64,000 nt of DNA, from the NCBI RefSeq assembly GCF_056746865.1, contig NZ_CM163382.1, one strand, 5' to 3'. The notes beneath the pieces are model-generated. The model was not told the DNA's origin. It saw only the letters and a list, made by a program, of their open reading frames with translations, and searched no databases. The stretch's first letter is position 1, and every line of letters begins with the position of its first letter. Positions 32,995-41,900 of the stretch are shown here, piece by piece. A program made the position numbers and the translations under genes.

Positions 32995-33563
32995 GTCGAT
33001 CCCCTGACAAGGAAATGTGAACCATAGACATCAACGCGTCATAAATGTTTACGCAAGTGCACAATGCACCCTTTCCACTATCAACAAGGAGGAGCAGAAA
33101 CTGTGTAAATCGTACAATGGTAAGACTTATCAAAAATACAGGTTAATTTTGGCATTTAAACCTTTTTTACTTGTTAGTATGATACAAAGGCTTTCAAAAA
33201 AGCTGGGAAATTCAACAACTCTTGGAAATTATGGACTTTGTCCCGCGGCTTTAATCTGACGGCCGCGTTCCTTTTTTGACTCAATTATTGACCCCTTCTC
33301 TACGCAACTTCAGTTCCCACCACCAACTTTGCGGCAGTTTCATAGGATGAATGTCTAAAAGAATAATGGTGAGCGATAAGAAAACGACTGAATAACTGCA
33401 CATTTTCGCTCGAAAGCTTCCTGTCAGATCCATAGCGAATCAAGTGCTGAATGTCACAGTATCGAACAGAAAACAGTGACGATCTAACCCTTCAAGAATA
33501 TTCTACGATTGTTCTGTTTAGGAAAAGCAAGGCGGGAAGTCGGGAGATAAGTCATTGATAAAG

Positions 33564-33653
33564 TGGCGGAGAGAGGGGGATTTGAACCCCCGGTAGAGTT
33601 GCCCCTACTCCGGTTTTCGAGACCGGTCCGTTCAGCCGCTCCGGCATCTCTCC
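33564..33653 (-). tRNA. serU: tRNA-Ser (serU-type)
   Basis: Minus-strand GGAGAGATGCCGGAGCGGCTGAACGGACCGGTCTCGAAAACCGG...CTCTCCGCCA with long variable arm, 90 nt. Confidence 0.92.
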
Positions 33654-33746
33654 GTTCAGATGGTTGCCATGATGCCAGGAAATTTGGCATTTTAACAGTC
33701 CCTGTCCGTGCAATTTTGTTCAAGTGACGAGTTTGCGAGCAAAACG

Positions 33747-34544
33747 ATGATTAAGTGGCCCTGGAAAGTACAAGAATCAGCACATCAAACTGCCCTTCCC
33801 TGGCAGGAAGCACTATCGATCCCCCTTTTAACGTGTCTGACGGAACAGGAACAAAGCAAATTAGTCACTCTTGCCGAACGTTTTTTACAGCAAAAGCGGC
33901 TTGTTCCTTTACAGGGCTTTGAACTGGATTCATTAAGAAGCTGCCGGATAGCACTTCTATTTTGCCTACCCGTTCTGGAGTTAGGACTGGAATGGCTGGA
34001 TGGTTTTCATGAAGTCTTAATTTATCCTGCGCCATTTGTGGTCGATGATGAATGGGAAGACGATATCGGTCTGGTGCATAACCAACGTATTGTTCAGTCA
34101 GGTCAGAGCTGGCAGCAAGGGCCTATCGTTTTGAACTGGTTGGATATACAAGATTCTTTTGATGCTTCTGGTTTTAACCTGATTATTCATGAAGTCGCTC
34201 ATAAGCTGGACACCCGTAACGGCGATCGCGCCAGCGGAGTTCCCTTTATTCCGTTGCGTGAGGTTGCTGGCTGGGAACACGATCTTCATGCTGCAATGAA
34301 CAACATTCAGGAAGAAATCGAATTGGTTGGCGAGAATGCGGCGAGCATTGATGCTTATGCTGCCAGTGATCCTGCTGAATGTTTTGCCGTACTTTCTGAA
34401 TATTTCTTTAGCGCCCCAGAACTTTTTGCTCCTCGTTTCCCTTCATTGTGGCAACGTTTCTGCCAATTTTATCAACAAGATCCTTTGCAGAGACTGCATC
34501 GCACTAATGATACAGACTCGTTTTCGGCGACGAATGTTCATTAA
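33747..34544 (+). CDS. mtfA: Mlc-titration factor MtfA (YeeI) peptidase
   Basis: 265-aa product from [11 protein letters not shown]; HExxH motif IHEVAHK. Confidence 0.9.
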
Positions 34545-34644
34545 TTAACAACTTTGCAGATTAATTAACCAATTGAAATGACTTATGAAATTTAGTGTTG
34601 ACAGACAAGGTACCGCTAAGTAATATGCGCCCCGTTCACACGAT

Positions 34645-34720
34645 TCCTCTGTAGTTCAGTCGGTAGAACGGCGGACTGTTAATCCGTATGTCACTGGTTC
34701 GAGTCCAGTCAGAGGAGCCA
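34645..34720 (+). tRNA. asnT: tRNA-Asn (asnT)
   Basis: 76-nt TCCTCTGTAGTTCAGTCGGTAGAACGGCGGACTGTTAATCCG...GAGGAGCCA. Confidence 0.95.
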
Positions 34721-34797
34721 GATTCAAGTTTTCATGCTTATCTGTACGTTTATATTTGTTTACGATTCAGTAAGTTAGCGTGAAAATCCTTGCCGGT

Positions 34798-34869
34798 GCG
34801 TATCTGGTTTTATCTCCGCATCGGGATAATTTGGTGGTCAGATCTGGGGTCAGTTTGGTTCGATTCTGG
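34798..34869 (+). repeat. Short direct repeats (GTATCTGG / AGATCTGG / CGATTCTGG) between asnT and the integrase start; candidate integrase arm-type sites
   Basis: Three related octamers at about 34800, 34840 and 34861, plus two GGTCAG copies. Confidence 0.35.
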
Positions 34870-34882
34870 AGTGACCCCCAAA

Positions 34883-36151
34883 ATGTCTTTAAACGATTCT
34901 AAAATCCGCAAGTTAAAATCTTCTTCCCGTCCGGTAAAACTCTCCGACTCTCACGGTCTGTATCTGCTCGTCAATCCGGGCGGTTCGCGCATCTGGTATC
35001 TCAAATATCGTTTCAACGGAAAAGAATCCAGAGTCAGTCTTGGCGCATACCCGCTGGTCTCACTGGCAGAAGCCAGGCAACAGCGCGACGGTATCCGCAA
35101 GTTACTGGCGCAGAATATCAACCCGGCGCAGCAGCGCATGGCAGAGAAAGCCGCCTGCTCCCCTGAAAAGTGCTTTAAAGCGGTGGCGGTGGCGCTGGCC
35201 TGGCACAAAACCAACAAAAAATGGTCGGCTGATTATGCCGCCCGTATTCTCGCCAGTATGGAAAACCATATCTTCCCGGCGGTTGGTCATTTGCCCGTTG
35301 CCAAACTTAAAACGCAGGATTTCACTGCCCTGCTGAGGGTTATTGAGGATAAGGGCTTTCTGGAAGTCGCGTCCCGCACGCGGCAGCAACTCAGCAACAT
35401 CATGCGCTATGCCGTATAGCAGGGGCTTACCGAAAGCAATCCGGCGCAGCATCTGGATGGCGTTGTCTCCTCCCCCGTAAAGAATCACTACCCCGCGTTA
35501 CCGCTGGAGCGGTTGTCCGAACTGCTTGGCCGCATCGGTGACTATCAGCAGGGCCGGGAGTTAACCCGGCTGGCGGAGGTGCTGACACTGCACCTGTTCA
35601 TCCGTTCCAGCGAACTGCGTTTCGCCCGCTGGAGCGAGATCGATTTCAGGCACAAAATCTGGACCATCCCCGCCACCCGCGAGGCCATCGACAAAGTTCG
35701 GTTTTCGGGGCGTGGCGCAAAAATGCGTACTCCGCATATCGTACCGCTCTCCCGCCAGGCGATTGCCCTTCTGAAACAGATACAGGAGCTTTCCGGCCAT
35801 CTGGATCTGGTGTTTCCCGGCGATCATAATCCGTACAAGCCAATGAGCGAAAACACAACCAACCGGGCGCTGCGCCTGATGGGGTATGACACGAAAACTG
35901 AAATCTGCGGGCATGGACTCAGGGCAATGGCCTGTAGCGCCCTGGTGGAGTCGGACCTGTGGTCACGCGATACGGTGGAGCGGCAAATGAGCCACCAGGA
36001 GCGCAACAGCGTGCGGGCGGCATATGTGCATAAAGCAGAGCATCTGGAGGCCAGAAAGGCCATGATGCAGTGGTGGTCGGATTATCTGGATGTGTGCCGC
36101 GAGGGGTATGTTGCGCCGTACATTTATGCCCGGCAGCATAAGGCAGCCTGA
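34883..36151 (+). pseudogene. P4-type tyrosine integrase at asnT, interrupted by a single in-frame TAG at 35417..35419
   Basis: ORFs 34790..35419 and 35513..36151 share one frame and are separated only by TAG; N-terminal SLNDSKIRKLK arm-binding-type domain; C-terminal catalytic region. Confidence 0.85.
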
Positions 36152-36186
36152 ATCAGAAATAGCGTAAATCATTAAAACCGGAAAAG

Positions 36187-36217
36187 CAGATCCTGATTGA
36201 CCGGGATCTGTTTTTTT
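36187..36217 (+). terminator. Rho-independent terminator after the integrase gene
   Basis: CAGATCC...GGGATCTG hairpin followed by TTTTTTT. Confidence 0.7.
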
Positions 36218-36320
36218 GTATTGAGAGGTATTGTCGCTGTTTTTGTTATTATTAATTGGGAAGCACCGAAAATTATTCCAGTAGAATATTTGCAGTCGAT
36301 TGCCTATTAATAAATGCATT

Positions 36321-36660
36321 ATTGATAGATAATTACCTTCTGTGATTTGCCTGCAAATCACAGAAGATGAAAACCTATCAATACGGGATATTTTCACGAA
36401 AATACAAATTAATACTCCAGAATATCTGCACCAGAATATCTCCTGACCCTATACTCTGAAACCTGTAAGAACTGCATCAGATATTCAGAAACCAGACAGA
36501 TATAAGCCTGAAATTATTTGGCGTCCAATGATTTCAGGCGAAACCTATCAATGCATCTGTTTTCAACAGGCAGCCACCTTCCGTGATTCACATGTTAATC
36601 ATGGAAGGTGAAAAGCTATCAATAATCGACATTTCCACGGAATTACCACTTAATACATCC
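36321..36660. repeat. Array of three related modules, each a hairpin (palindrome) followed by a conserved box GAAA(A)(C/G)CTATCAAT-N5-a(t/c)aTTT(t/c)CA(c/a); plus one inverted box copy
   Basis: Palindromes 36337..36366 (perfect 14-bp arms), 36506..36539, 36575..36610; CTATCAAT at 36375, 36545, 36616; inverted ATTGATAG at 36321; no ORF. Confidence 0.6.
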
Positions 36661-37461
36661 CCAAAAATGCGCCATAAAATACCGGACAATCTTTCCTGAT
36701 ACAGATTATCACTGCACCAGCTATACGGAGACAAAATAATCTGCACCCGTCCTGGATAATCTGCTATCTGCGCCAGCGTCCCGCCGCTCTACCTGTTCAG
36801 TGCTGCGCCAGTACCTGGCCCTTTAGTTTTTGGCCCTTTCAGGTCAGGCGCTGTTCCCCTTATCGCCCCCTTAACCTTTATGACCCTTTCCCTTTCTGGC
36901 GCAGCCAGTTTATTTGGAAATGCTCCATGACAGTCTGCACCAGACTGTATTTTCACCACAGGATAACAATCACAAAGTGCAAAAAATAACATGAAGCACC
37001 GAAGATTCTTAATTCATATGAAGCAGGTTATTATGCCAAAAACCGTCGCAGCATTTTTATAAAATCATGAGGCATCCTGAGACCATATAATATATGTCAC
37101 AGGATACGGAAAAACACAGAGAGAATTATTCAGATATAACCCTGTGCCAGAATTAATGTGATGCCCCGGTGAATTTACATTTTAAAATTTTCCCAGCCCT
37201 GTAGTATTGGTAAAAATGATTGAAACACCTGTTATTAACAGAGAGCATTTCGTGTGATTACAGGGGTAATCACTATAATATTCCGACAAACTATATTGGT
37301 TAAGCAGGAGAATCTGATCTGTTGATATTTATTCGTCATGCTGTAACGATATTTTCACAATATAAACCCGTTCGCCCCCTGCGCCAGATCCGGAACATAG
37401 GGTACGATAAATCGCTGTCGTTACGCAGTAACGTACTATTTTGCGACATTCATGAATTCAG

Positions 37462-38346
37462 TTATTCCTCCCTCCAGCGGTATCCATACACCTGTTTCAC
37501 CCAGCGACCGCGACCGTCGCCATGACCCAGATCCGTCGCCGTCAGCGCCAGGGATTCCTTTTCGCTGAATCCCTGCGCCAGATAATGGCGGATCGCATCC
37601 TGCGCCCAGGCATAGCGCAGGGAGTGAGGGGAAAATTCCCCCTTCAGCCCCACCTTAATGACCTGTTTGTGCCAGCTCTCCAGCGCCATTTTGAGATCAG
37701 GCTTGTCGATCAGCCTGCCATTGTGTCGATCCGCGACCAGTAAGGCCTTTTCCAGAGCCTTCCTGACTGCGCCAGTATCCAGAACTGTCGTATGGCGGGG
37801 ACGCCCACCTTTGGTGCCAAACACCACTTTCAGCCGGTTTTCCCCGCGCTCAATGGCTTTCAGCCACGTTTTCAGCGACAGTGAACTCTGTACCGCTTCC
37901 TGCGAGCGTAACCCCATCAGTCGCGCGATCTCCAGCGCCGCAGCCAGCCCCGCATCCTCAGCGCGGGCTTTCTCCATAACCTGCTGGTAATGTTCCGGCG
38001 TAATGGCGCGGCGCGTACCGTTGCGTGAAGCGCCCGACACTCCCAGCGCCTTATTGGTTAGGCGTGGATGCTCCACCACCTGCCTGCGTCCAGCCTGTCT
38101 CAGCACGGCCTGCAGTGCCGCCATGTCGTTTTGCAGCGTTCGTAAACCAATATCCTGCTCCAGCCGTTCCTCAATGTAGCATTCGATATGGCGAACCCTG
38201 ATCTGCTCCACCCGCTGGATCTGGATATTCAGCGCCCGTAAATGTTCACTGAACCGTTTTGTAATATGGATACGGTCATTCACTGTTTTAAAGCTGCCGC
38301 CCGCTTTCTTCGCCAGCGCCTTCATTTCACTGCTTAATTTACTCAT
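37462..38346 (-). CDS. Tyrosine-type site-specific recombinase / integrase-family protein (294 aa), second recombinase of the asnT islet
   Basis: C-terminal HSLRYAWA...DLGHGDGRGRWVKQVYGY resembles the H-x-x-R ... catalytic-Y region of tyrosine recombinases; AGGGGA Shine-Dalgarno upstream of ATG. Confidence 0.6.
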   Translation of the reverse strand: MSKLSSEMKALAKKAGGSFKTVNDRIHITKRFSEHLRALNIQIQRVEQIRVRHIECYIEERLEQDIGLRTLQNDMAALQAVLRQAGRRQVVEHPRLTNKALGVSGASRNGTRRAITPEHYQQVMEKARAEDAGLAAALEIARLMGLRSQEAVQSSLSLKTWLKAIERGENRLKVVFGTKGGRPRHTTVLDTGAVRKALEKALLVADRHNGRLIDKPDLKMALESWHKQVIKVGLKGEFSPHSLRYAWAQDAIRHYLAQGFSEKESLALTATDLGHGDGRGRWVKQVYGYRWREE

Positions 38347-38935
38347 GAATCCCCTGCAACATAAACAAACAGTCTCCGGCGTGTGCTGTTTGGCTGCGCC
38401 AGAACGATACCTTCACGCCGGAGTGGCTGGTTGTTGAGGTTTAGGGAGTTTCAGGCTGTACGCGGTACAGACTGCCTGACGAAGCAGGGGTGTCTCCGGA
38501 GCATCGTGCCCCCCCTCGGTATCGATCTTTTTCTCCTTTACTCTGAGCTGACAGCGGCCCCAAAGGGCATGTCAGACGGCGGAAATATGGCGCAGGCCGG
38601 GACTGGCGCGGCTTGCGGCGGTATGTTGTGCAGCGTCACTTTGCCCTGTCGCTGGCGCGACCAGAGTGACACCTCGTCTGGTGCAGAGGGTAAACGTTGC
38701 GTTTCTGGTGCAGGGTGACGGTCACGCGGCAGCAAAGCCTGCTGTCTTTGCAGGCCGCAGCCCGTCAATGTAAGGCGCGGGTTGTCAGCAGAAGATAAAA
38801 CCCGGCAAAGCCAGAGTGCCAGCCCGTAAAGCCGGGTAAGCATGGCTACGAAGAAGAGAAGTGGAGAAAAAATAAATGACCGACAAATCTTATGCGGGAT
38901 GGGAATTAAACTACGCCGCTTAACTGCGGGTAACG

Positions 38936-41900
38936 GTGACCTTCACCATGCCACAGGACGTTGCGGCAAACTTTACCCTCGAAAATAACGGCATTGCCAT
39001 CACCCAAGCCAATGGGGAAGCGCATGTCACGCTGAAAGGTAAAAAAGCGGGTACGCATACGGTTACCGCAACGCTGGGTAATAACAATACCAGTGATTCG
39101 CAGCCGGTAACGTTTGTGGCGGACAAAACCTCGGCTCAGGTTGTCCTGCAGATGTCAAAAGATGAGATCACAGGTAATGGCGTCGATAACGCAACGCTAA
39201 CTGCAACGGTTAAAGATCAGTTCGACAATGAGGTGAATAATCTTCCGGTAACATTCAGCTCAGCCTCTTCAGGACTCACCCTGACCCCGGGAGTAAGTAA
39301 TACCAATGAGTCTGGCATCGCGCAGGCCACTCTCGCAGGCGTTGCCTTTGGTGAGCAGACGGTCACTGCATCACTGGCTAATAATGGTGCCAGCGACAAC
39401 AAAACTGTGCATTTTATTGGCGACACAGCAGCGGCAAAAATTATCGAGTTGACGCCTGTCCCAGACAGCATAATCGCCGGTACCCCGCAGAACAGCTCCG
39501 GCAGCGTCATCACCGCCACAGTCGTTGATAATAATGGCTTTCCGGTGAAAGGTGTGACTGTGAACTTCACCAGCAGAACAAACTCTGCCGAAATGACGAA
39601 TGGCGGCCAAGCCGTAACGAACGAACAGGGTAAGGCTACCGTCACTTATACCAATACCCGCTCCTCGATAGAATCAGGAGCGAGACCGCATACCGTTGAG
39701 GCCAGTCTGGAAAATGGTAGCTCCACGCTTAGCACATCAATTAATGTCAACGCTGATGCGTCTACGGCACATCTCACCTTGCTACAGGCACTTTTTGATA
39801 CAGTCTCCGCAGGCGACACTACCAATCTGTATATTGAGGTGAAGGATAATTACGGCAACGGTGTACCCCAGCAGGAGGTAACCCTCAGAGTATCACCAAG
39901 TGAAGGCGTGACCCCCAGTAATAACGCTATATATACTACCAACCACGACGGCAATTTTTACGCAAGCTTTACCGCTACAAAAGCCGGGGTTTATCAAGTG
40001 ACGGCAACCCTCGAAAATGGCGATTCGATGCAACAAACAGTGACCTATGTGCCGAACGTAGCGAATGCTGAAATCACGCTGGCAGCCTCGAAGGATCCGG
40101 TGATTGCCGACAATAACGATATCACGACACTAACAGCAACAGTCGCTGATACAGAGGGCAATGCGATAGCCAACACTGAGGTAACATTTACTCTGCCGGA
40201 AGATGTGAGGGCGAACTTCACGCTGAGCGATGGCGGTAAAGCGGTTACTGATGCCGATGGCAAAGCGAAAGTCACGCTGAAAGGTACAAAAGCAGGCGCT
40301 CATACTGTTACAGCATCGATGGCTGGCGGTAAGAGTGAGCAGTTGGTGGTGAACTTTATTGCGGATACACTCACTGCGCAGGTTAATCTTAACGTTACCG
40401 AGGACAATTTTATCGCTAATAACGTCGGGATGACCAGGCTGCAGGCAACAGTGACTGATGGAAACGGCAACCCGTTAGCCAATGAGGCGGTGACATTCAC
40501 GCTACCGGCAGATGTGAGCGCAAGCTTTACTCTCGGACAAGGCGGTTCCGCCATTACTGATATCAACGGCAAGGCTGAAGTTACACTGAGCGGTACAAAA
40601 TCCGGCACCTACCCCGTGACAGTTAGCGTGAACAATTATGGTGTCAGTGATACGAAACAGGTGACTTTGATTGCCGATGCTGGTACCGCAAAACTAGCCT
40701 CATTAACCTCTGTATACTCTTTCGTCGTCAGCACGACCGAGGGCGCGACCATGACTGCAAGCGTCACTGACGCTAACGGCAACCCGGTAGAAGGCATAAA
40801 AGTTAATTTCCGCGGAACCTCCGTCACGCTAAGCAGCACCAGCGTTGAAACGGATGATCGGGGTTTCGCTGAAATTCTTGTGACAAGCACCGAGGTCGGA
40901 CTGAAAACAGTTTCAGCCTCTCTGGCAGATAAACCTACTGAAGTCATCTCGCGATTACTGAATGCAAAAGCAGATATTAATTCTGCAACGATTACCAGTC
41001 TGGAGATACCTGAAGGTCAGGTCATGGTCGCACAAGACGTAGCAGTTAAAGCTCACGTCAACGACCAGTTTGGCAATCCGATTCTTAATGAATCTGTAAC
41101 ATTCAGTGCAGAGCCACCAGAGCACATGACCATCAGCCAAAATATTGTCTCTACTGATACGCATGGTATAGCCGAGGTCACTATGACGCCCGAAAGAAAC
41201 GGTTCGTATATGGTGAAAGCATCCCTGGCGAATGGATCCTCTTATGAGAAGGATCTGGTGGTAATCGATTAAAAACTGACACTCTCGGCGTCCAGCCCGC
41301 TTATCGGTGTCAATTCCCCAACAGGTGCAACTCTGACGGCAACGCTAACTTCTGCAAATGGCACTCCAGTGGAGGGTCAGGTCATCAACTTTAGCGTAAC
41401 GCCAGAAGGTGCGACGTTAAGTGGCGGAAAAGTGGGAACCAACTCTTCAGGTCAGGCTCCAGTCGTTCTGACCAGCAATAAAGTCGGTACATATACGGTG
41501 ACTGCATCGTTCCATAACGGCGTAACAATACAGACACAGACAACCGTGAAAGTCACTGGCAACTCAAGCACCGCCCATGTTGCTAGCTTTATCGCTGATC
41601 CATCGACTATCGCCGCCACCAACAGTGATTTAAGTACCTTAAAGGCAACGGTTGAGGATGGCAGTGGTAACCTGATCGAAGGTCTCACTGTGTACTTCGC
41701 CTTAAAAAGCGGCTCTGCCACATTAACGTCATTAACAGCGGTGACAGATCAAAACGGAATCGCGACAACAAGCGTGAGAGGAGCGATAACGGGGAGCGTC
41801 ACGGTAAGCGCAGTCACGACCGCTGGTGGAATGCAAACAGTAGATATAACGCTGGTGGCAGGCCCGGCAGACGCCTCAAAGTCAGTCCTTAAGAACAATC

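Follow-up and report, generated by a model that had tools for sequence, protein, structure and literature searches.

A hairpin-box array in an island at asnT

The window analysed here, a 64-kb stretch of contig NZ_CM163382.1, is E. coli chromosome around serU-mtfA-asnT, with asnW, asnU and asnV further along, and our subject is a set of hairpin modules carried there by an island integrated at asnT (Table 1). Between the integrase gene of this island and a convergent recombinase-like gene, a hairpin followed by a fixed box of 12-14 bases occurs three times (modules M1, M2 and M3). The integrase gene is a pseudogene, listed as 'internal stop' in the RefSeq annotation of a strain with identical sequence, and its terminator is kept in every related locus. 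An earlier reading of the letters by a model, made without database searches (the original prediction), had placed the array just past this terminator and between two genes of the tyrosine recombinase family, as is the case. No open reading frame (ORF) is conserved across the 1.3 kb that separate the integrase from the convergent gene (36152-37461). The island of the window strain is a stump, in which the recombinase-like gene and an EFASI RNA motif are followed by yeeJ.

Table 1. Features of the asnT island stump and of its spacer, in window coordinates
Feature	Position	Strand	Basis
tRNA-Asn (asnT), integration site of the island	34645..34720	+	ARAGORN; Rfam tRNA
P4-type tyrosine integrase pseudogene, internal stop; ORFs 34790-35419 and 35513-36151	34790..36151	+	ORF list; NCBIfam PRK09692 on both halves
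Integrase terminator, stem AAAAGCAGATCC/GGATCTGTTTTT then T-run	36182..36215	+	inverted repeat, sequence
Degenerate A-type module A', decayed palindrome GAAAATTATTC..GAATATTT and decayed box GCCTATTAAT	36266..36311	+	local alignment of units 1 and 2; four-locus alignment
Module M1, B-type, 86-bp quasi-palindrome	36309..36394	+	inverted-repeat scan, covariance model
Tail of M1, B-type (ACGGGATATTTTCACGAAAATACAAATTAATAC), a paralogue of the M3 tail	36383..36418	+	sequence comparison
CTGCRCCAG iteron-like repeats, exact at 36426, 36712, 36768, 36803, 36935, 37379 (+) and 36896 (-); one-mismatch CTGCACCCG at 36741	36426..37387	+	window motif count
Module M2, A-type, hairpin 36506-36539, box 36540-36552, A-type tail ..TTTTCAACAGG	36502..36574	+	inverted repeat, covariance model, compensatory variants
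Module M3, B-type, hairpin 36575-36610, box 36610-36623, B-type tail to ~36659	36572..36659	+	inverted repeat, covariance model, compensatory variants in L003, L025
Only cross-genus conserved part of the spacer: CTGCGCCAG, GCCCTTT repeats, dyad GCGCCAG..CTGGCGC	36803..36879	+	blastn
Palindrome M4, GTGATTAC-AGGG-GTAATCAC, abutting a perfect TATAAT	37254..37273	+	motif count
294-aa tyrosine-recombinase-family protein (PF12834 and PF12835)	37462..38346	-	Pfam E = 6.7e-60 and 2.9e-39
EFASI RNA motif (RF02957), ~55 nt upstream of the recombinase-like gene	38401..38530	-	95.7 bits against a gathering score of 51.2

M1 has perfect arms of 14 bp (36337-36350 and 36353-36366) around a 2-nt loop, M2 has arms of 13 nt matching at 92% (36506-36518 and 36527-36539) and M3 arms of 18 nt matching at 89% (36575-36592 and 36593-36610). 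The box reads GAAAACCTATCAAT in M1, at 36369-36382, and GAAACCTATCAAT in M2, and its consensus over the modules, on the integrase-sense strand, is (A)AAANC(T/A)ATCAAT. Within the M1 quasi-palindrome lies an inverted copy of the box (ATTGATAG, 36321-36328); this quasi-palindrome heads the list of inverted repeats for the whole window when arms of 13 nt or more, separated by 10 nt or less, are scanned for. Two types of module can be told apart. In the A-type (M2, the degenerate A' and a further module, M0, described below) stems like CCTGAAATTATT / AATAATTTCAGG are followed by the box and then by ..TTCAATAGG, whereas in the B-type (M1 and M3) stems of the form CCTTCYGTGATT.. / ..AATCACRGAAGG are followed by the box and then by GATATTTTCACGGAAWTACCA.TTAATAC. 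The modules are AT-rich, with a GC content of 33-40%. The M1 and M3 regions form an inverted repeat with each other (36318-36369 and 36575-36626, 52-nt arms, 75% match), and all three modules are also readable as arms of 11-14 bp around an 8-bp spacer, a geometry like that of lox or FRT. By eye, GATATTTTCAC-like motifs occur four times.

The modules are beyond chance by three measures. The 14-mer box, allowing one mismatch at most, has 2 matches where 0.21 are expected, and the module region folds better than its shuffles on either strand (z = -7.7 on the plus and -7.4 on the minus strand). A covariance model was based on an alignment, A1, for which 22 distinct hairpin-plus-box variants were taken from the window and 12 further loci, 13 Escherichia sequences in all; it finds M1 with 73.5 bits (36331-36384), M2 with 62.1 bits (36502-36554) and M3 with 68.6 bits (36572-36625), at E values from 4e-12 to 7e-15, and the best unrelated match in the 64 kb reaches 17.9 bits (E = 0.19). 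M1 also scores on the minus strand (52.2 bits), because it carries the inverted box.

The original prediction had described three modules, each with its box directly behind the hairpin, and an inverted box upstream of the first. All of these elements are present where it had placed them, and the inverted box is real; the box follows at once in M2 (hairpin to 36539, box from 36540), whereas two nucleotides (AT) intervene in M1, and to the three good modules must be added the degenerate A' and M0, which has been lost by deletion. The array had rightly been set apart from CRISPR, since the box starts are 170 and 71 nt apart and the hairpin sequences differ. With these differing stems and the irregular spacing, the modules are not the iterons that had been proposed, and the iteron-like repeat of the locus is CTGCRCCAG. 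The region had also been said to hold no ORF. It is non-coding to the extent that no reading frame is conserved across loci and that 1-nt indels occur inside boxes, but mechanical ORFs overlap it and PGAP places a hypothetical protein there in some genomes. A hidden small ORF was considered and rejected, as no frame is conserved and the GCCCTTT core, which would encode K-G repeats, shifts frame between genera. The statement that the hairpins are not terminators holds for the plus strand, where they are followed by tails of the form GAAAAC... without a U-run; on the minus strand, and there only, M1 passes a loose terminator-like scan with a stem of 5 GC pairs and the tail AATTATCTAT. No promoter-like site was found on the plus strand, and the scan returned 4 such sites in total against 4.8 expected.

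Distribution, history and variation of the modules

The 1.3-kb spacer is present in 433 of 5,426 complete E. coli genomes, always on the chromosome and at asnT, asnU or asnV. M3, used as a BLAST query, is found in 400 of the 5,426, again on the chromosome and at no other type of locus, and is absent from 93%; the median is two places per genome, with 1-6 among sampled carriers, all inside the island spacer. The box 12-mer AAANCWATCAAT occurs in 23 of 38 fetched loci (cited below by numbers such as L003), only in the spacer between integrase and recombinase genes and always on the integrase-sense strand. Modules are also carried by E. albertii, E. whittamii, Pseudocitrobacter and some Salmonella. 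The nucleotide search that the original prediction had proposed thus finds them only between a P4-type asn-tRNA integrase gene and a PF12834/PF12835 gene, and not scattered over the genome in the manner of REP or IRU elements. That prediction had not recognised the motif, and it is indeed unlike known plasmid, phage and Rfam families. Plasmid and phage collections gave no module match and the searchable literature no module sequence, and Rfam 15 yielded no family match to the modules, either for 36200-36720 at E <= 10 or for 33000-40000 at E <= 1, the best scores on them being generic miRNA and snoRNA hairpins that remain below threshold (at most 25.5 bits against gathering scores of 37-95).

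The usual E. coli array is M0-A'-M1-M2-M3. M0, an A-type module present in intact islands, has been deleted in the window strain at about 36265/36266, the left edge of A'. All sampled islands with intact integrase and recombinase genes retain the array, with five modules in four of them and four modules in O145 RM12581. The local alignment of unit 1 with unit 2 scores 138.5, compared with 51 +/- 7 for shuffles, which identifies the array as an A+B unit duplicated in tandem; the three modules of the window are what is left of an alternating A/B array of five. A single adjacent A+B pair is found in Pseudocitrobacter and in one E. coli lineage (L003). The number of modules ranges from 1 (E. albertii, Salmonella) to 5 and changes through duplication and deletion; deletions end at short direct repeats (TTAATA, for example, in L021). 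In the sampled E. albertii the M1 tail is kept and its hairpin and box are gone, and the presence or absence of M1 is flanked by ATAT. Inverted boxes of 9 bp are seen in M1, whereas M0, M2 and M3 have no clear left repeat; in L018, the perfect arms of M0 extend over ~26 bp and take in part of the box. All 25 sampled module-bearing loci are collinear and differ in structure by insertion, deletion and duplication only. The insertion sequence IS1 lies in or beside the array in two strains (L021 ~1700-1727; L020 3083-3780), and in NH-21 it sits inside the M3 box, between GGAAGCTGAAAAG and GGTAGTGACTCC, with the island truncated.

What is kept in these modules and what is free to change? The stems fall into about four sequence classes and pairing is retained in them. 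In A1, 90% of the stem cells are paired, compared with 33-45% after a shift of the partner by 1-3 columns and with 69% in shuffles, and both sides have changed in 11 of the 16 stem pairs. Compensatory changes are found in M2 and M3 of L025 (CCGTG/CACGG to CCATG/CATGG, and GAAATT/AATTTC to GAACTT/AAGTTC), with two further ones in M3 of L003. Between A- and B-type modules about 7 of 15 mirrored stem positions are different and the tails are unalignable, whereas the box differs at 0-1 of 14. In Salmonella, an unrelated hairpin with arms of 17 bp stands ahead of the same box. The inner arm positions (T-ATT / AAT-A) are invariant in all A1 classes. Of the fold and covariance analysis suggested by the original prediction, it is the covariation of the stems that bears out the small structured family considered there.

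The recombinase-like gene, EFASI and the other repeats of the spacer

The 294-aa (amino acid) protein encoded by the convergent gene contains the tyrosine-recombinase motifs HSLRY and ..VKQVY. A tblastn search of plasmids pointed to pSGI4 (the integrative and conjugative element SGI-4 in circular form), whose protein WP_033567157.1 is 49% identical to it over 293 aa (BLASTP, E = 7e-102). In a 2026 preprint, WP_033567157.1 is among four MOB_M instances from the authors' own dataset that were used as BLAST queries, with homology defined by E < 0.001, identity > 30% and coverage > 50%; the 294-aa protein lies within these limits. The same preprint describes MOB_M (tyrosine-recombinase-like) relaxase genes as abundant, integrase-adjacent in 96% of cases and with the origin of transfer (oriT) upstream, and one published pipeline (NAR 2023) recognises the atypical relaxase of the SGI1 MpsA type by PF12835. 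On this similarity, the protein is probably a relaxase homologue. The original prediction had seen here a decayed integrative element with an orphan recombinase; the decay of the island is borne out, but the recombinase is more probably a MOB_M relaxase homologue, and the 49% identity to the SGI-4 protein leads us to read the element as a decayed mobilizable P4-like island.

EFASI has the same position in L002, L003, L008, L012, L016 and pSGI4, where the order STAXI, EFASI, gene agrees with the Rfam description of EFASI. It always lies ~55-110 nt upstream of a PF12835 gene (also in L008 5808-5936, L012 5808-5936 and L028 2697-2845). In SGI1, a small RNA that is essential for mobilisation is encoded between mpsA and oriT. 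Because the oriT of a MOB_M element is expected upstream of the gene, and because of this position of the SGI1 small RNA, EFASI may be the oriT of the PF12835 gene family, or its analogue of the sgm-sRNA, rather than a free-standing small RNA. The likely oriT side of the putative relaxase is the EFASI side and not the module side.

In other E. coli, the left end shared with the window runs on into a helix-turn-helix (HTH) gene, a 153-aa ORF, an ash gene, C4 and isrK RNAs, and type VI secretion (T6SS)/Rhs or defence cargo. In fuller islands, C4 RNA, isrK, ash and HTH genes are arranged as in P4, and the recombinase gene stands in the place where P4 has alpha and then crr. The P4-like early region was observed in L002, L003, L008, L012, L016 and L033-L037, with isrK, the C4 antisense RNA and its a1/b1 targets, ash, the 153-aa ORF and HTH_35, and the cargo seen in these islands includes T6SS/Rhs, PIN-TPR-GreABC, HsdR, and RelA_SpoT with NA-iREase2. 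This suggests a family of defence or competition islands in which replication has been swapped for mobilisation.

The real iteron-like sites of the locus are the CTGCRCCAG repeats, of which the window has 20 copies against 1.11 expected. Twelve lie within 36426-38713, the copies beyond the tabulated ones being beside and inside the recombinase gene, up to 38713; the repeat is ~40-fold enriched around this gene, its orientation switches near EFASI, and its layout recurs at conserved positions in seven other genera (L007-L013, around 5000-7100). The copy at 36426 has a local origin in that CCAGAATATCT is duplicated at window 36419-36445 (CCAGAATATCTGCACCAGAATATCTCC), which creates the CTGCACCAG copy; other loci have CCAGAATATCT once and no iteron at that point. 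The conserved core of the spacer was recovered by blastn from loci of Serratia, Klebsiella, Cedecea, Pseudocitrobacter, Salmonella arizonae and Erwinia. The palindrome M4 shares with the B-type hairpins the core GTGATTW-N6-WAATCAC (2 matches against 0.06 expected) and is kept in E. whittamii and Pseudocitrobacter as well as in E. coli. Neither M4 nor a B-type hairpin is present in the E. albertii locus that was sampled. A minus-strand promoter-like site (TTAACC-17-TATTAT, 37303-37275) has its predicted start inside M4 and points towards the modules, antisense to int.

What the modules may do

Judged by their sequence, the modules look functional. Stems that are free to vary, a fixed box, a fixed polarity and a single type of locus fit a folded single strand that is read sequence-specifically, and our preferred reading, to which we give a probability of about 0.35, is that the modules are a small and so far undescribed family of cis-acting elements of the P4-like asn-tRNA island that act in this form. 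Single-stranded DNA is favoured as the active form because the island appears to be mobilizable. The unit is a stem-loop of free sequence followed by the fixed box on the integrase-sense strand, in an island whose early operon ends in the putative MOB_M-type relaxase. According to this model, the element would most plausibly take up its fold while the DNA of the island is single-stranded, in the course of transfer or replication driven by the relaxase, and the folded hairpin and its box would constitute a signal for recognition, priming or processing, with either the recombinase-like protein of the island or a host factor as its reader.

This architecture resembles, by analogy, known hairpin-plus-box sites on single-stranded DNA such as STAXI and the inverted repeat and nic site of oriT. 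STAXI (Rfam RF01728) is a repeated hairpin and box that neighbours 'integrase' genes of the PF12835 type, and single-stranded DNA is its suspected active form. Both it and the modules are repeated stem-loops followed by a short box (CCAAUG in STAXI, ACC(A/T)ATCAAT in the modules) in mobile islands with the same gene family, and in SGI-4 STAXI lies ~700 bp upstream of the homologous gene. However, there is no sequence or model match between the two even at E <= 10, and STAXI is GC-rich and upstream of EFASI and the gene, whereas the modules are AT-rich, have long palindromes that are nearly perfect, and are located on the downstream side of the gene, next to the integrase terminator. The oriT of SGI1, a MOB_M element, is a 125-bp array of inverted repeats with three conserved stem-loops, which like the modules cluster in non-coding DNA by a tyrosine-recombinase-like mobilisation gene; but it is GC-rich and upstream of mpsA, whereas the modules lie downstream of the gene, at ~0.8-1.1 kb from its 3' end, its upstream side being taken by EFASI, and are missing from sister lineages. 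P4 crr, the cis replication region, follows closely on the alpha gene and is made of two direct repeats of 120 bp that contain type I iterons, and it shares with our locus the duplicated non-coding units right after the last early-operon gene and the short iterons interspersed in both orientations. Its iterons (TGTTCACC) and sequence are unrelated, however, it is not built of hairpins, and the gene at our locus is not a primase. Homology to the crr or ori of P4 was rejected, since the covariance model finds nothing in P4 and the iterons differ.

Why would such a site matter? MOB_M relaxases have recently been recognised as very common in enterobacterial chromosomes, and their DNA substrates are known for few elements. 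A directional hairpin-plus-box limited to one island clade is a candidate cis site for transfer, establishment or regulation, in islands many of which carry T6SS/Rhs and anti-phage cargo. At this locus, the 'orphan recombinase' is relabelled as a probable relaxase and the true iterons are told apart from the hairpin modules.

Several observations weigh against the preferred reading. The activity of the modules, the strand on which they would act and their binding partner are all inferred. The modules lie downstream of the stop of the 294-aa gene (37462), whereas SGI1 and the scheme of the preprint put oriT upstream, and the 294-aa protein retains the N-terminal core-binding-type domain PF12834, unlike MpsA, MobK and TcpM, which are reported to lack a core-binding domain. 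Lineages with a recombinase-like protein 61-75% identical to that of the window keep the convergent gene pair but carry no modules, even where the identity is 70-75% (Serratia, Klebsiella, Cedecea, Erwinia, S. arizonae, other Salmonella and other E. albertii); their spacer, of ~190-240 bp, holds the integrase terminator, CTGCRCCAG repeats and GCCYTTT repeats equivalent to window 36803-36879. The modules are therefore an accessory of one island clade, dispensable for the core machinery. No more than 0-2 nt at the centre are left out of the palindromes, whose centres either flip or stay palindromic (ACATGT to ACGCGT; CACCAGTG versus CACTGGTG). This is typical of the homogenisation of DNA palindromes by template switching, which can mimic compensatory evolution, so that the 'compensatory' changes need not mean selection. 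Among E. coli orthologues, the box is as variable as the unstructured spacer (0.15 versus 0.15 variable sites), a comparison that is uninformative on purifying selection. The excess of G.T over A.C mismatches on the plus strand (25 versus 7 cells) reduces to ~8 versus 4 independent events, which is not significant and does not assign a strand.

These centres point to an alternative that we regard as a real possibility, namely that the modules are DNA palindromes of little or no function that maintain themselves, having arisen by local duplication, with arms kept symmetric by intrastrand template switching, in islands that are young and closely related. The variable outward extension of the palindromes, as in the inverted box of M1 and the long arms of M0 in L018, would fit this explanation, as would the fluctuating copy number with deletions at short direct repeats, boxes no better conserved within E. 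coli than the neighbouring spacer, and genera that do without modules. What it does not readily account for is a box in which A and B paralogues agree at 13-14 of 14 positions although their stems are about half different and their tails unalignable, the recurrence of that box behind the unrelated Salmonella hairpin, the invariant orientation of the modules and the retention of the array in every sampled island with both genes intact. If the modules were inert, they would be a natural example of long palindromes that arise, become symmetric, duplicate and decay at one locus.

We consider it rather unlikely that the modules act as RNA, either in read-through transcripts of the integrase gene (plus strand) or at the 3' end of the recombinase operon (minus strand), as a REP-like 3' stabiliser or insulator or as a small RNA with the box as seed. 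The position between convergent genes, the strong folding of both strands and the covariation of the hairpins would suit such a role, the plus-strand mismatches lean to G.T, related islands are rich in small RNAs (C4, isrK, EFASI), and SGI1 requires one for its mobilisation. However, none of the promoter-like sites is convincing, the plus-strand hairpins have no U-tract and lie behind the strong integrase terminator, and the modules match nothing in Rfam. Loops of 0-2 nt and palindromic centres are, moreover, unlike the products of selection on RNA, and the wobble bias comes down to the few events counted above.

Unlikely, too, is the idea of the original prediction that the modules are protein-binding sites in duplex DNA. 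They would then be operators or recombination or accessory sites for a dimeric protein, which might be the 294-aa protein, Int or an HTH regulator of the island, with the box as a second, for instance IHF-like, site. The invariant inner arm positions, the core shared by B-type hairpins with the palindrome beside TATAAT, the lox/FRT-like reading and the WATCAA core of IHF sites inside the box are all in favour of such sites, but the outer arms are wholly different between classes, which would be intolerable for a single sequence-specific protein. The TTR element of the IHF site (WATCAANNNNTTR) is missing in all three box copies, and an IHF site was rejected for the box; so was a P4 Int arm-type site, as the arm repeats of P4 Int (TTGGGGGCATAT) are unrelated to box and modules. 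It is CTGCRCCAG, and not the modules, that tracks the recombinase across genera, and no products of recombination between modules were seen except simple deletions. Sites for IHF, CRP, FNR, DnaA, Ogr/delta and TetR-type proteins, compared by eye with their consensus sequences, gave partial matches only, which may serve as leads.

Quite doubtful is a more specific proposal in which the box is the site where a MOB_M protein or its partner recognises or cleaves single-stranded DNA, the hairpins are a structural handle and the modules form a second class of cis site apart from the oriT on the EFASI side. Such a site might have a role in termination, priming or cassette capture in a spacer that is an insertion hotspot in other genera; were it true, it would provide the first defined DNA substrate grammar for the abundant MOB_M family. 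An invertible promoter switch or shufflon, in which the recombinase would flip the segment bounded by the boxes and hairpins that M1 and M3 carry in opposite orientation, is effectively refuted in spite of the inverted repeat and the adjacent tyrosine recombinase gene, since 25 of 25 sampled module loci are collinear, in 370 of 400 genomes a single unbroken match spans 80% or more of the M3 junction query (the sampled exceptions being due to divergence or IS1), and the inverted similarity simply follows from both units being palindromes.

Known repeat families were also compared with the modules. REP/BIME and ERIC/IRU repeats and miniature inverted-repeat transposable elements (MITEs) are likewise imperfect palindromes in AT-rich DNA between convergent genes, and the terminal inverted boxes of M1 and its presence or absence between short direct repeats recall a MITE; the modules, however, occupy a single locus and have no cognate transposase or RAYT. 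A dispersed REP/ERIC repeat or active MITE was rejected on the grounds of one locus type, no plasmid or phage match and no copy elsewhere in the 64-kb window. A MITE or insertion-sequence terminus is unlikely in that no copy lies outside the spacer, and IS1 is only a secondary insertion in some loci. A tandem RNA of the type III antitoxin kind is excluded by the spacing, the tails and the lack of a partner gene. A GC-rich REP-like hairpin (GGTTGCGGTAGGG...CCCTACCGCAACC) was noticed in one Salmonella spacer (L030 ~5210-5255) and is missing from another (L037).

Other genera show insertions in the spacer between integrase and recombinase genes (L010 of Cedecea colo ~6865-7873, L007 of Serratia, and L032 of Raoultella 5376-5894). 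The Cedecea insert, of ~830 bp, contains a P-loop ORF. On either side of it stands a 24-bp direct repeat, GCGG(A/T)TCTGCTTTTTATTTGCAC, whose end falls inside an iteron, and the insertion looks like site-specific cassette capture. At the other end of the island stump, yeeJ (window 38936-41272; L001 11693-18769), which encodes an inverse autotransporter adhesin, follows directly; the window ORF has 778 aa, and in the strain of identical sequence yeeJ is annotated as a pseudogene with an internal stop.

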